Positions 43,626 through 62,185 of a stretch of 64,000 nt of DNA are shown here, in pieces; positions within the stretch are counted from its first letter, which is position 1, and the number at the start of each line of letters is the position of its first letter. The notes under the pieces are model-generated. The model was not told the DNA's origin. It saw only the letters and a list, made by a program, of their open reading frames with translations, and made no database searches. The position numbers and the translations under genes are program-made. The stretch lies in the NCBI RefSeq assembly GCF_003334405.1, contig NZ_QOWM01000001.1. One strand, 5' to 3'. This DNA comes from Escherichia coli. Its GTDB lineage: Bacteria; Pseudomonadota; Gammaproteobacteria; Enterobacterales; Enterobacteriaceae.

Positions 43626-45629
43626 TCATCCTTGTTGCTGAAGCATGGGGAATAATTGTTCGCACAGCAAAACGCAGTTATTCATTGCTTCTACCCGTGC
43701 CTCGCTTTCTGTATTACGAAATTGTCCCAATACATGTGCCAGCCGATAAAAACCCACCGCGGTGAGGTCATTCGCCAGCAACTCTGCCTGACCAATAGCA
43801 CTCTGTTCCTGATAGCGCCAGCCGTTATGGAGCAGTTGAATAAGTAATGCCTGGCAGCGCATCAGCAACTGATGAGCAGTAGACGGCACAGGCAGAACGC
43901 TGACAGAAGGTAGTGATGCCACCACAGGCGCAGTTTCTGCGTCCAGCGCCCAGGCACGAGTCTTTGTCATCATTACCTGTGGTTCCAGTGTCAATTGCCC
44001 ATCAACAAAACTGACAAAGCCAGAAACCAGACACACGGGGTCGTCTGTTTGTTGCAAAAGCGCCGCCATGCGTTCAATGGCATAAGGCGCGCTGGCTGAG
44101 GCTGGCAGTGATAACGTCAGCAGATTATCTTCACCTTCGCCGCTGATTACCTGCGCATCCAGCGTCTGGCGGCTGCTATCCCAACCGAGCGAAATACACT
44201 CAGCGACCGGCAGAATAAATAAGTTATCGACCTGATTAAGAGGCCGTATGCAGGAGGGGGGACGCTGGCGTAAATATTCCCGCAAAGCCACAATGCCCGA
44301 CTGGCGTAACGGCGCGCTCAACATTTGCCAGGCATCAGGCGACAGCGGCACAACGCTGCTTAAGCGGTTGCGGGTAGCTAACAGCAGCTCGCCATCGGCA
44401 CTGCGTTTTGCTGCTTGTGAAACAATTTGCCCACCCGCCAGTGCGCCAGCCTGAAAACTAAACAGCCGACGCGTAGCTGCCGGTGAGTTTTCCTGTTCAC
44501 TTCGCGGCCAACTGCGCGAAAGGTGCAAAATACTGCCGGTGTCGGGATCGGTAAACCAGATGCGTAAACCATAATGCTCAATATCCTGCCAGCAACGCAT
44601 ACCTAAAGACACCAGCCGCAGATGATCAAGCTTTGCTTCTCCGGCAATGCCAGAGCCAACGACCGTGCGCCACGGCACAGGAGGAACTTCACCAACACTG
44701 TCGCGCCGCGCCATCTCTTGTGCGCAATTTAATCGACTGTTTAATGCCGCAAGCTGACGTAAGCATTCTCCGGCATGATAGTGGCTGGCGCGGGCGTGGA
44801 AGGCATCAACGCTGGCGCGCAGTTGCCGTAGCGATTCACTCACCCATCGCCAGTTGCAGCGTTCCGCTGCTTGCTGCGCGCGGCTGAAAGCGGCCTCGTA
44901 GTGAATAAGCGGCTGGCTGATGCCGCCCAGCCATAATGCCTGGCTTAGTTGCTGAACATATTGACGACACGTTTTGCCTTCTTCGCTGGCAAACAGATCG
45001 TCAGATGATGTGACGTGTTCGCTGCGCATCTGCCAGATTAAATGAGTCAATTCCGCTTGCTGCGCTTTTGCCTGGACAAAGGCCTGTACTGCCAGTACGA
45101 CATGTTCGCAAAGTGTGCCTTCAATACAATCACAACGGGCGAAACGAATGCTGCTACGGGAATAAAAACGCACATCGCTCATCGGTAAGCGGGCAGAGGG
45201 AATTTCGCCCGGCGTACAGAACAACTCAATGGTGATGCCTTTAGCGACCAGCGCCTGCGCGCGTTTGCGGATGGCATCGGGCAGGGTAGCCAGTTCTTCC
45301 AGCCAGATTGCCGGATCCCACTCTTCTTCTTTTTCTGTGGGCTGGACGGTGGCACAAAGTCGTTGATAACTTAACACCAGCATCACGCGATGACGGCACA
45401 TGCCGCTGGCCCCGCAGCTGCACTGAGCCTCTTTCAGTGCCTGGCCGTTCGCCAGCTGGGTACGGACACCGTCACTGAAGGTGGCGATTAAAGCGCCGTT
45501 CTCATGGCTGATCTCCGGGACGTTGCCATTTTCCAGTTCCTTAAGACTGCGCTTAACAAAACCGGCATTGCTTAACGCTGTCAGGGCCTGCGGTGTCAGT
45601 TCTAATAATTCCGGACGTAGTGAATTCAT
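43626..45629 (-). CDS. yehQ: SWIM zinc-finger protein YehQ
   Basis: ORF 43626..45653; start placed at Met9 where ATG overlaps the yehP stop (ATGA); two CxC..CxH motifs (CSCGASGMCRH, CDCIEGTLCEH). Confidence 0.8.
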   Translation of the reverse strand: MNSLRPELLELTPQALTALSNAGFVKRSLKELENGNVPEISHENGALIATFSDGVRTQLANGQALKEAQCSCGASGMCRHRVMLVLSYQRLCATVQPTEKEEEWDPAIWLEELATLPDAIRKRAQALVAKGITIELFCTPGEIPSARLPMSDVRFYSRSSIRFARCDCIEGTLCEHVVLAVQAFVQAKAQQAELTHLIWQMRSEHVTSSDDLFASEEGKTCRQYVQQLSQALWLGGISQPLIHYEAAFSRAQQAAERCNWRWVSESLRQLRASVDAFHARASHYHAGECLRQLAALNSRLNCAQEMARRDSVGEVPPVPWRTVVGSGIAGEAKLDHLRLVSLGMRCWQDIEHYGLRIWFTDPDTGSILHLSRSWPRSEQENSPAATRRLFSFQAGALAGGQIVSQAAKRSADGELLLATRNRLSSVVPLSPDAWQMLSAPLRQSGIVALREYLRQRPPSCIRPLNQVDNLFILPVAECISLGWDSSRQTLDAQVISGEGEDNLLTLSLPASASAPYAIERMAALLQQTDDPVCLVSGFVSFVDGQLTLEPQVMMTKTRAWALDAETAPVVASLPSVSVLPVPSTAHQLLMRCQALLIQLLHNGWRYQEQSAIGQAELLANDLTAVGFYRLAHVLGQFRNTESEARVEAMNNCVLLCEQLFPMLQQQG

Positions 45630-61300: not shown

Positions 61301-62185
61301 CATAGCATTGGCAATATCCGGGCATTCGGGGAGCAGTAACGCCGCAAAAGGTTGCCGTGCTGGGGATAGCGTCGGAATGGCGGCGAGTACTTTATCTACA
61401 CAGCGTTGCCACTCATCTTCTGAAGCGAGTGAAAGATGATGACATAGACGTTGATGCCAACTCGGCAGCGATTCTGCTTTGTGATTAGGTGGAATGATGG
61501 TGGTTACTGCGCCTTTTACTGGTTTATATCTAAGTTGAAGAGCGAGAAGGGCAATTTCAACGGCACTTTCCAGACCACAGCGAATGACTAAGTCATCGAC
61601 CAGTTCATCTGCAGAGTAAGAGTTCCAGAAACTCCAGAGCAATGCTGCATCAGATTGTGCACTCCCTGTCTGTTGATTACCCTGAACTCGCATTTGTAAC
61701 TCAGCAAAAGCCTGCTGCCAGTTTTCTGGATAAGAACGGTAATTGTTGGCGGGATCATATGCCCTGGTGTTATTCGCGATGAGCTGCCATATTTGACCAT
61801 CTTTGTGCAGATAATTGATCTCTCTGGGGCGAGAGCGATGAGGAAAAGCAAATCGATTAATATCGTCAGTTAGCCGAATGACCGCATCATCAGCCAGCCA
61901 GGGGCGTTGGTTTTTACTCTCAGGGGAAGTTTCAACTTCAGGAGTGGCTTTGGTAATGGGGGGGATATGCACGTTTGCTGAAGCATTTTCCACATAGCCT
62001 TTTTTCGTTTTCTCTGCGATCAGCTTAAGCTCCGCTTTTGCCGCTGCCGCAGCATCCGCAAAACTTTTTATCTGGCTTTGCCCGTTAGTGCCGACTTTGC
62101 CCCAGTTGATATGCAGCTCGTTTCCCTGCTGCTCAACCGCCCAGAATTTATGTGATTTTTCGTCCTGATAGATAAAGTGTCTCAT
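58385..62185 (-). CDS. molR: MolR-like giant protein with WGR-like N-terminus, apparently intact
   Basis: 1266-aa uninterrupted ORF; N-terminal MRHFIYQDEKSHKFWAVEQQGNELHINWGKVGTNG...; RBS aggga upstream. Confidence 0.8.
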   Translation of the reverse strand: MRHFIYQDEKSHKFWAVEQQGNELHINWGKVGTNGQSQIKSFADAAAAAKAELKLIAEKTKKGYVENASANVHIPPITKATPEVETSPESKNQRPWLADDAVIRLTDDINRFAFPHRSRPREINYLHKDGQIWQLIANNTRAYDPANNYRSYPENWQQAFAELQMRVQGNQQTGSAQSDAALLWSFWNSYSADELVDDLVIRCGLESAVEIALLALQLRYKPVKGAVTTIIPPNHKAESLPSWHQRLCHHLSLASEDEWQRCVDKVLAAIPTLSPARQPFAALLLPECPDIANAMALRYADQNVPAMTWLSMMVSDDVALAIQEKYGFPPLYNDFRKYLATLLANNGMRGVSRILLKLPVDYPVKYTDLFTHIHANAEDLVKWLWKTNHPDAIQILILGVNGKKKHLEYLSKACQKHPAAAIAAYATLLAIHENNEWRKALVKLITATPELVCEVIPWVNAKAAGILSECRPLPVAEECEYATVDMLPELLVAPPWVINKKKNVIPVFDLPVLPIPAVTDITPGITELISHTDISRFSEIAQYQASQQTLFTDLPLIEKESWETSFIPFTPEQQILWQLGFNEWLHCENDLHEKKYIPQSAVDALLRFDFSALKAEFAKYHNNANKSWNLSALCYLPGQQAISFLNQIIIEERYSGEKEILAVFGSTAIPAFMTCLQRDHQRLWIFTLFIGASELALPMAQRLQKKIAYKDAVNWLANNPRHAAAGLLPLALGKPCQNREYARQALLLLVKLNQRETIEEIAQGYNQPDVLAALATLFDSDPLEEYPAKIAPLPGFYQFPLWRRPRLKSNNLPLPDDAMRHLGTMLSFPRDITSYAGLAIIKETFTRESLADFGWDLYTAWTEAGAPAKENWAFTSLGILGNDDTARKLTPLIRAWPGESQHKRAVYGLDVLASIGSDIALMLLNGIAQKIKFVALQEHASDRINMVAENRGLTMAELEDRLAPDLGLDSSGSLTLDFGPRQFTVGFDETLKPVVRDANGKVLKDLPKPNQSDEKTQATDAVNLFKQLKKDVRAIASQQIDRLEQAMCQRRRWTAEQFRLFLVEHPLVRHLTRRLLWGVYNDENALITCFRVAEDSTYSDAQDELFTLPAGNIGIPHVLEIPPESAAAFRQIYVDYELLPPFQQLERGSYHLADNERNVHELSRWDGRLCQAGRIVGLERRGWQRLEESGSVYAMRKSTPYGALELETEPFSLIYGETGYSDLLPVESVKITAPYDRYGKQSSPTFSVLDDITASELINDIESLFD

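Follow-up and report, generated by a model that had tools for sequence, protein, structure and literature searches.

Does the Escherichia coli locus at positions 43626-62185 of the 64,000-nucleotide stretch analysed here (contig NZ_QOWM01000001.1 of assembly GCF_003334405.1; hereafter the window) hold several modules that came to lie side by side, or one system? A first-pass annotation of this DNA had read it as a possible composite conflict or stress island, in which a MoxR-VWA-SWIM operon, a duplicated type I toxin-antitoxin and giant WGR-family genes are neighbours on the same strand. We identified it as the yeh locus, which comprises yehQPML, a tandem zor-orz, yehK and three giant genes encoding DUF4132 proteins, here termed D genes. 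All three kinds of modules are indeed present where they had been placed, as judged from the open reading frames (ORFs), their translations and the annotation of an identical chromosome. The comparison of genomes across phyla gave the answer that D-L-M-P-Q is one conserved, self-contained cassette of five components, namely D (WGR, HEAT-like and DUF4132 regions), L (YehL, a MoxR-type AAA+ ATPase), M (YehM, a DUF5682 protein), P (YehP, a CoxE-type VWA protein with a MIDAS motif) and Q (YehQ, a double-SWIM protein), and that in Escherichia tandem multiplication has given D two or three paralogous copies, which an insertion separates from L.

This answer comes from a YehM-profile scan in which each of 100,044 species was represented by one genome; it returned 333 stretches with a relative (about 0.3% of the species genomes), the best 80 loci being kept for comparison. 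These loci belong to Escherichia, Klebsiella, Erwinia, Serratia, many Betaproteobacteria, Xanthomonadales, Myxococcota, one Deltaproteobacteria genome and the actinobacteria Glycomyces and Lentzea; Salmonella, Citrobacter and Enterobacter are not represented among the 80 best. Where the flanks extend far enough, a DUF4132 homologue almost always stands directly beside L-M-P-Q on the same strand, its stop codon lying typically 0-100 nucleotides (nt) from the MoxR gene. The distance between the stop codons of D and L has a median of 1168 nt (Escherichia loci being outliers), L itself being about 1.1 kb long, and the spacing is therefore operon-like. The gene order is D-L-M-P-Q in 36 loci and L-M-P-Q-D in seven, all from Burkholderia, where the AAA_5, DUF5682, VWA_CoxE, SWIM and WGR+DUF4132 proteins are encoded contiguously on one strand. 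More than 20 loci carry two to four D genes in tandem, and the YehQ gene always closes the L-M-P-Q block. The loci devoid of D are nearly all contigs that end near the cassette; the exceptions are L056 and L063 (Betaproteobacteria MS502), with about 8-10 kb of upstream flank and no match to D, P or Q. The adjacency of the MoxR operon and the giant genes across phyla thus makes them one five-gene cassette, not two modules, and outside E. coli D and L-M-P-Q look like one operon. Hence, the functional link suggested by the first-pass annotation stands for the MoxR-VWA-SWIM operon and the giant WGR/DUF4132 genes, and fails for zor-orz and yehK, which are confined to Escherichia.

No further gene family is common to more than 13 of the 80 loci, and the flanks of the cassette vary with the genus: ten flanking ORFs from seven genera corresponded to topA, sohB, sspB, hrpA, pncB, a GGDEF protein, an S41 peptidase or nothing that matched. 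With no conserved neighbours and with flanks that differ between genera, the cassette is therefore a self-contained unit inserted in various chromosomal contexts, and occasionally in plasmids. Its patchy distribution between genera, in different contexts, also indicates that it is mobile on a longer timescale.

Plasmid carriage is rare. YehM homologues with an AAA ATPase gene alongside were observed on the 76.8-kb plasmid NZ_CP025783.1 of Iodobacter fluviatilis and on plasmids or megaplasmids of Rhizobium, Sinorhizobium and Streptomyces. Nine E. coli records of PLSDB with a near-identical yehM include entries of 1.4-4.9 Mb, which are apparently mislabelled chromosomal sequence. A search of 50,697 phage records gave a single weak YehM match (27% identity over 515 residues), at positions 11208-12770 of MT835988.1, an unannotated 14-kb Bacteriophage sp. 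contig from human faeces, and with just this one match we rejected a phage origin of the cassette. The PHROGs families phrog_29006, 30700, 33984, 36295, 36602 and 20839 match YehQ, YehM, YehK and the D protein D2 (described below) over their full length with near-maximal scores; these matches were set aside as apparent host genes from over-extended prophage predictions.

In the window, positions 43000-63000 are 100% identical to several complete E. coli chromosomes, and the annotation of one of them by the Prokaryotic Genome Annotation Pipeline (PGAP) agrees with the ORFs and translations used here; beyond yehI it gives two further DUF4132 genes and then metG. All yeh genes and these two DUF4132 genes lie on the minus strand. 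The yehL gene (49045-50133) encodes a MoxR-type ATPase (AAA_5) with the Walker A motif GEPGTAKS at residues 83-90, the closest solved sequences being the AAA modules of midasin (4e-10) and MoxR 2r44. In NCBIfam, YehL gave weak sub-threshold matches to GvpN and MadB, the other weak sub-threshold matches among the eight proteins of the locus being to a cobaltochelatase and, for WGR only, to a Leptospira family (see below). The yehP gene (45626-46762) encodes a CoxE-type VWA protein of 378 amino acids (aa), with the DxSxS motif of MIDAS as DQSGS at residues 222-226 and no extra domain; a sequence search of the PDB with YehP gave nothing useful. The Burkholderia orthologues carry the Pfam domains VWA_CoxE and VWA_2 (YehP) and AAA_5 (YehL). 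An ATPase with Walker A and an adjacent VWA protein with MIDAS, the two hallmarks of MoxR-VWA pairs, are thus both encoded here. In YehQ (43626-45629), the Pfam SWIM domain was found twice, at residues 56-88 (E 9.7e-4) and 160-183 (E 0.21), beside a large uncharacterised C-terminal region. The whole-gene ratios of nonsynonymous to synonymous substitution rates (dN/dS) are about 0.19 for yehQ, 0.13 for yehM, 0.05 for yehL and 0.03 (up to 0.08) for yehP, as compared with about 0.03 for metG.

The remaining protein of the block, YehM (46755-49034), consists of an N-terminal domain fused to a HEAT-like solenoid of about 500 residues. Judging from its model, the N-terminal domain of YehM/DUF5682 has a probable TIKI/TraB/ChaN/EreA-like hydrolase fold, with the alpha/beta architecture and parallel sheet core found in ChaN, TraB, HopBA1, EreA/Bcr135, PMT and RRSP. 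Unlike what is seen within this TIKI/TraB/ChaN/erythromycin-esterase superfamily (RRSP, HopBA1, PMT), the likeness of YehM is undetectable by sequence, Pfam giving only DUF5682 and a profile search of the PDB nothing, and a HEAT-like solenoid is fused to the domain. At the sequence level, all 30 proteins compared, which range from E. coli to actinobacteria, share the residues GIRH (8-11), E35 and GGWH (199-202) without exception. Sanchez-Pulido and Ponting reportedly described, in 2013, two GxxH motifs and a glutamate as the residues that define the superfamily. As far as their sequence tells, the GxxH, Glu and GxxH residues of YehM appear consistent with the His/Glu catalytic site (2His/2Glu) of the active superfamily members (PMC6254334). 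The searchable literature, which is incomplete, holds no mention of DUF5682, mentions DUF4132 without a function, and describes neither a MoxR+SWIM+WGR combination, nor the five-gene association, nor the fold of DUF5682.

The fifth component, D, is the one that varies. Both D1 (58385-62185, 1266 aa), a molR-like gene that adjoins metG and is an optional third copy, and D2 (55340-58372, 1010 aa), the positional orthologue of the K-12 molR/yehH pseudogene, encode WGR, HEAT-like and DUF4132 regions. D3, which is yehI (51698-55330, 1210 aa), encodes a DUF4132 protein devoid of WGR, which aligns to D1 and D2 only from their residue ~95-100 onward; the description as giant WGR-family genes thus suits D1 and D2, and not YehI. 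K-12 molR is orthologous to D2, not to D1, and its name of "molybdate metabolism regulator" is likely a mis-annotation. The first-pass annotation was right in that parts of the giant genes are AT-rich. In 1-kb steps over the 64 kb (mean GC 0.513, standard deviation 0.033), the minimum of the whole window falls at 57001-58000 in D2 (0.408; z=-3.2) and another low value at 60001-61000 in D1 (0.444; z=-2.1); the yehLMPQ genes are not AT-rich (0.54-0.555).

These AT-rich parts are the places where D alleles differ. When D2 is aligned to the K-12-type allele, the first ~200 nt, which encode WGR (87-94% identity), and the last 1475 nt (92-94%) align, and no nucleotide similarity was found in between, at 56814-58173 (nt 200-1559 of the gene, about residues 67-520), that is in a hypervariable allelic cassette encoding the N-terminal helical repeats. 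In amino acids, D2 alleles share 46-48% identity over their first ~520 residues, as compared with 94-95% over the last 495. The variable segment, which coincides with the AT-rich zone of the first-pass annotation, has a GC content of 0.37-0.45 (0.31-0.43 at third codon positions), a saturated synonymous divergence (dS) and a dN/dS of about 0.23. Among 5426 complete E. coli genomes, the 1010-aa D2 allele of the window occurs in 408; its one relative in a further species of Escherichia is 86% identical, and the common D2 alleles have about 240 extra residues. D1 is full-length in 1630 of the 5426 genomes, with best matches mostly in the 80-95% bands of nucleotide identity, and the direct comparison with two full-length alleles gave nucleotide identities of 87.7% and 91.1% (85-89% in amino acids). 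Its most divergent codons, 301-700 (about 60086-61285), cover the other zone that had been noticed as AT-rich (60,200-61,000). The yehI alleles are 91.5-94.7% identical in nucleotides (they differ by 5-8%), with a dN/dS of 0.14-0.19. In sliding windows, the variable D segments have a dS above 1 and a dN/dS of 0.1-0.4; with such ratios and intact ORFs, we rejected the possibility that they are decaying or non-coding DNA. As judged from the alleles, the variable D segments are old, functional, mosaic haplotypes. The dS of metG (62326-64000) against five other E. coli strains is 0.11-0.22, as compared with 0.06-0.08 for btsS/btsR (40081-42482) on the other side of the cassette, and the deep DUF4132 haplotypes seem to reach into metG.

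In an alignment of 36 D sequences, the invariant columns are almost all at residues 497-1000, as would be expected if one half of the protein were constant and served in docking, and the other were variable and served in recognition. The tandem D paralogues of Massilia, Rhodanobacteraceae, Duganella, Lentzea and Glycomyces cluster by lineage and are therefore independent expansions; the yehI-type paralogue is common to Escherichia and Klebsiella, YehI falling together with the Klebsiella paralogue that is proximal to the MoxR gene. An extra, shorter DUF4132 gene was observed 3' of the SWIM gene in Undibacterium (L037, 16012-18912, on the opposite strand) and Duganella (L040, 15501-18353); these two genes form a deep tree branch of their own and may represent a distinct subfamily. 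In a Foldseek comparison of the D model with the PDB, the WGR domain alone was recognised, the DUF4132 alpha/beta domain having no recognised solved relative. The WGR domain of D1/D2 is 51% identical over 68 aligned columns to PDB 2ra8 (the uncharacterised Bacteroides fragilis protein Q64V53), and it also matches, by WGR only, the N-terminus of the Leptospira "fibronectin-binding" family NF047464. From these likenesses, similar WGR modules are joined to quite different C-terminal regions in distant bacteria. As compared with WGR proteins of the PARP type, D has no PARP catalytic domain, it is built as WGR, disordered linker, solenoid and DUF4132, and it has a paralogue, YehI, without WGR.

What, then, are zor-orz and yehK doing between D and L? 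The zor-orz region, which falls in the 1.2-kb gap left unannotated by PGAP between yehL and yehK, is a tandem duplication of about 608 bp, the copies being 88-95% identical. Each copy holds, on the plus strand, a zor ORF of 29 codons, copy 1 at 50566-50655 (a ZorO R23Q variant) and copy 2 at 51174-51263 (a T9I variant), with the joint translation MDTLTQKL(T/I)VLIAVLELLVALL(Q/R)LIDLLK. Each ORF is identical to the published ZorO (sequence from PMC6669753) at 28 of 29 positions, and both encode the small hydrophobic toxin of a zor-orz type I system. Upstream of each zor, on the opposite strand, lies its divergent orz small RNA (sRNA). The orz of copy 1 (50245-50327, minus strand) matches OrzO-P (Rfam RF02083) at 50245-50320 with 99.9 bits, and that of copy 2 (50855-50935, minus strand) at 50855-50928 with 88.8 bits, as compared with a gathering score of 60. 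The yeh genes and the orz sRNAs thus share one strand, as the first-pass annotation had stated for all modules, and the two toxin ORFs depart from it. Each copy has back-to-back promoter-like hexamers (for zor copy 1, TTGCAA-16-TATAAT at 50357-50384) and a hairpin terminator; the orz of copy 1, transcribed towards yehL, ends with this hairpin, and an inverted repeat lies there at 50238-50282. The orz of copy 1 can form a 20-nt duplex with one mismatch with the 5' untranslated region (UTR) of its own zor (50474-50493), and that of copy 2 an 18-nt duplex with one mismatch (51084-51101), non-cognate pairing being limited to at most 10 nt. Both cognate pairs thus exceed the published threshold of at least 15 continuous nt, or 17 nt with one mismatch (PMC11264685).

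We therefore regard this region as the already known zorO-orzO/zorP-orzP locus, a type I toxin-antitoxin of E. coli O157:H7 (Wen et al. 2014, PMC3919570), for the EDL933 alleles of which the toxicity of the peptide and the rescue by the sRNA were demonstrated (PMC3919570). It resembles the O157:H7 locus in its tandem duplicated pairs, its 29-aa hydrophobic toxin, its divergent sRNA and its cognate-specific pairing of 18-20 nt to a long 5' UTR, and differs in alleles only, with the R23Q and T9I toxin variants in place of ZorO and ZorP. As published, and as the sequences here would allow, OrzO would pair with the zor 5' UTR and thereby block the translation of the 29-aa membrane toxin. Across the 5,426 complete E. 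coli genomes the copy state is two, one or, as in K-12, an orz-only remnant, in agreement with the variable zor-orz content reported before (PMC11264685).

Next to it, yehK (51317-51637, minus strand) encodes a 106-aa orphan with no Pfam match even at E<=10; its GC content is 0.383, and the zor-orz/yehK region at 50501-51500 is another low of the window (0.416; z=-3.0). Homologues of yehK and OrzO-P matches occur in Escherichia loci only, always between the D genes and yehL, and both were missing when the loci of Klebsiella and Erwinia were scanned, in which D directly adjoins L. From this distribution, zor-orz and yehK are a genus-specific insertion at the D-L junction. A link of either one to the cassette was rejected, as no co-occurrence was found outside Escherichia, and zor-orz is most likely a passenger tied to the cassette by its position only. 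The dN/dS of yehK is 0.5-1.0, with few substitutions, and in strain ETEC4077 (L088, 4397-4750) a different hypothetical ORF of 354 nt is annotated at the yehK position. The terminator of the orz copy next to yehL ends about 110 nt before the yehL start (50133), and the orz-only remnant of K-12 lies at the same place by yehL, inside the region reported to be bound by H-NS.

Is the whole then an island of E. coli? At a coverage of at least 80%, the yehLMPQ genes are present in 5203, and yehK-yehI in 5220, of the 5426 genomes (about 96%), at one fixed site between metG and yehR, and the cassette is therefore not a mobile island in this species. No transfer RNA (tRNA) gene was found in the 64-kb window. 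As for the usual signs of genomic islands (variable presence, mobility genes, a tRNA or integration site, an atypical composition), the locus does not show them, AT-richness being limited to segments. The notion of an island or hotspot is thus not borne out, and neither is that of a composite of three modules, the zor-orz and yehK insertion of Escherichia having nothing that ties it to the cassette. What does survive of the first-pass annotation is that some content is variable and atypical in composition, namely the D copy number, the divergent AT-rich N-terminal halves of D, and the zor-orz pairs.

The cassette decays frequently. In K-12, the D gene molR carries a frameshift and yehQ is interrupted by a stop codon; with two components being pseudogenes, this strain is a poor model of the system. 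Other strains have stops in yehM or D, one has a deletion that fuses yehI to yehM, and another an insertion sequence (IS1)-associated loss of the D genes through the 5' end of yehL, yehK and zor-orz included. In an ST131 sublineage the resistance transposon TnMB1860 sits in the DUF4132 region (PMC9334617). Independent destruction of the cassette was observed in L085 (50EVAW), L086 (O102:H6), L088 (ETEC4077) and H10/H71 (ETEC4073), the lesions including an IS100 in yehQ. Regarding regulation, H-NS binds the intergenic stretch upstream of yehL in K-12, and yehL and yehM, which are repressed by H-NS/StpA, are upregulated in an hns stpA mutant (PMC3686432). The K-12 metG-molR promoter is directly activated by BglJ-RcsB and not repressed by H-NS (PMC3950696), and zor and orz have promoters of their own. 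With distinct promoters and distinct control, there is no evidence for the co-regulation of the three blocks in E. coli that had been envisaged.

The cassette has well-described relatives in part. Like CoxD/CoxE, NorQ/NorD, CbbQ/CbbO, RavA/ViaA and midasin, it encodes an AAA_5/MoxR protein (YehL) together with a CoxE-type MIDAS VWA protein (YehP). Unlike these two-component remodellers, the yeh pair always comes with TIKI-like DUF5682, double-SWIM and WGR/DUF4132 proteins, one partner is hypervariable and multiplied, and no client enzyme gene is linked to the pair, no client complex being conserved beside the cassette in the 80 loci. The closest described kind is that of the vWA-MoxR ternary conflict systems (VMAP, iSTAND) of Kaur, Burroughs, Iyer and Aravind (2020, PMC7159879), minus their defining VMAP/iSTAND component. 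Both have a CoxD/CoxE-derived MoxR-vWA core with extra large components, a sporadic phyletic spread and one component that diversifies, and the logic proposed for the VMAP/iSTAND systems is a nucleoside triphosphate-dependent threshold switch that couples a sensor to an effector (PMC7159879). The differences are that the VMAP/iSTAND third component was not found, the Pfam domains of the cassette proteins being only AAA_5, DUF5682, VWA_CoxE/VWA_2, SWIM, WGR and DUF4132, and that YehP has no fused effector, the candidate effector being a separate TIKI-like protein, YehM. SWIM, WGR, DUF4132 and YehL are not mentioned in that work (PMC7159879).

By analogy with CoxD/CoxE, NorQ/NorD, CbbQ/CbbO and midasin, we propose that YehL, as a motor, and YehP, as a MIDAS adaptor, would form an ATP-driven switch or remodeller, the target of which would be a complex for which the HEAT-like parts of YehM and D serve as the scaffold. 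The D proteins would be interchangeable input subunits, which dock to the invariant machinery by their conserved C-terminal half (helical plus DUF4132) and recognise a nucleic-acid feature and a variable ligand by their WGR domain and hypervariable solenoid. With its two SWIM fingers, YehQ may provide a second module for binding nucleic acids or proteins, and the TIKI/TraB-like domain of YehM is probably the catalytic output, cleaving a peptide or ester bond. The evolutionary pattern of D suggests that its target is itself variable, most plausibly a component of a mobile element or phage. Overall, we consider it somewhat probable that the locus is best explained as one D-L-M-P-Q cassette with a passenger zor-orz, in which a MoxR-VWA switch works with D as the variable recognition component in surveillance or conflict. 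That the cassette serves in surveillance or conflict, and not as a housekeeping chaperone, is, taken by itself, a possibility on the doubtful side. It is favoured by the variability of D, the patchy phyletic spread, the frequent decay and the silencing by H-NS, and it is held back by the lack of PADLOC matches, the non-defence neighbours, the near-core status in E. coli and the uniform purifying selection. More tentative still, and rather doubtful, is the reading of the yeh cassette as an unrecognised, phylum-spanning immune system, in which the D proteins would sense the nucleic-acid ends or proteins of invaders, YehL/YehP would license the response, and YehM, possibly with YehQ, would be the effector.

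Several observations weigh against a surveillance or conflict role and the cassette model behind it. None of the eight proteins has a match in PADLOC-DB v2 at E<=0.01; the ten flanking ORFs of the seven genera, a small sample, include no defence gene, and PADLOC gave there only generic cross-matches to topoisomerases and helicases, so that neither a known defence system nor the defence-island context evoked by the first-pass annotation was found. A near-universal presence at one fixed site is unusual for defence systems. All cassette genes are under purifying selection, and no window of 100 codons has a dN/dS above 1, for which reason we speak of ancient mosaic alleles only and do not claim diversifying selection; as the dS of metG is raised too, part of the divergence of D may be owed to past recombination in the region and not to selection on D. 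ChaN and PMT have the fold of YehM and are not hydrolases. The locus sample is biased, being the best-scoring 80 of 333 and found via two peptide patterns, and the families were defined on ORFs called from stop to stop, by phmmer with the eight window proteins and one round of hidden Markov models on the same loci. Finally, synteny is what points to physical contact among the five proteins, and the function of the cassette, that of every Yeh protein included, is what we infer.

The main rival is a housekeeping role in maturation, in which YehL/YehP, in the manner of CoxD/CoxE, NorQ/NorD, CbbQ/CbbO or RavA/ViaA, would insert a cofactor into, or remodel, an endogenous complex, the DUF4132, DUF5682 and SWIM proteins being substrates, scaffolds or adaptors, and the diversity of D being neutral or driven by recombination. 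The domains of YehL and YehP, together with the fact that described MoxR-VWA pairs are assembly or metal-insertion factors (PMC7159879), speak for this role, as do the fixed site occupied in 96% of E. coli, the purifying selection throughout and the housekeeping genes that flank the cassette in other genera. We nevertheless regard it as unlikely: the 80 loci yield no conserved candidate client enzyme, a cassette matched in so few species and with none of its 80 best loci in Salmonella, Citrobacter or Enterobacter, with components that are pseudogenes in K-12 and other strains, and with yehLM silenced by H-NS, sits poorly with housekeeping, and alleles at 46-48% identity plus the lineage-specific expansion of one subunit are not expected of an adaptor with a fixed client. 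A role in DNA damage or chromosome maintenance, in which WGR (as in PARP1-3) and SWIM would sense DNA breaks or unusual structures in the chromosome of the cell itself and MoxR/VWA would remodel the nucleoprotein there, could build on the two SWIM fingers of YehQ and on the resemblance of D and YehM to the HEAT-repeat scaffolds of factors of chromatin and the replisome, such as Scc2, Ctf4/AND-1 and symplekin, solenoid matches being weakly specific. It appears quite improbable to us, given that WGR is missing from YehI, the paralogue that E. coli has kept most widely, that nuclease, ligase and polymerase domains were undetected (Pfam for D2, YehQ and YehK, precomputed Pfam for the Burkholderia orthologues, NCBIfam for all eight proteins), and that the hypervariable solenoid, the paralogue expansions, the patchy distribution and the decay in K-12 would be left unexplained. 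Very improbable, as it is largely refuted by synteny, is the view of the first-pass annotation that three independent conflict or stress modules, which may cooperate, were gathered in a hotspot or island. The variable content of the zor-orz site (two, one or orz only; PMC11264685), the uptake of IS elements and TnMB1860 by the DUF4132 region (PMC9334617) and the AT-rich segments would suit it; the synteny of the NTPase operon with the giant genes holds across phyla, so that they are no independent arrivals, zor-orz is missing from the Klebsiella and Erwinia cassettes scanned, and the near-core locus has neither a tRNA in the window nor defence genes of the PADLOC type.

Under the preferred reading of one cassette with D as its variable recognition component, seven y-genes (yehH/molR, yehI, yehL, yehM, yehP, yehQ and the extra DUF4132 gene) can be tested as a single unit. 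New here are the WGR/DUF4132 protein as the fifth partner of an uncharacterised MoxR-VWA system, a probable hydrolase fold for DUF5682, and a subunit with alleles down to 46% amino-acid identity within a species in an otherwise conserved machine, a pattern that typifies the recognition subunits of host-parasite conflicts. The cassette, if this is confirmed, would be a further architecture among the MoxR-VWA-based conflict systems, and its role would account for the silencing by H-NS and the frequent decay. If the immune reading were true, the near-core genome of E. coli would hold a defence system that has decayed in K-12 and is missing from all current catalogues. The location of zor-orz inside the cassette in Escherichia is useful for studies of zor-orz regulation or copy number. 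Elsewhere in the window, two more low-GC stretches (0.44-0.47) lie outside the locus, at 15001-17000 and 20001-21500.

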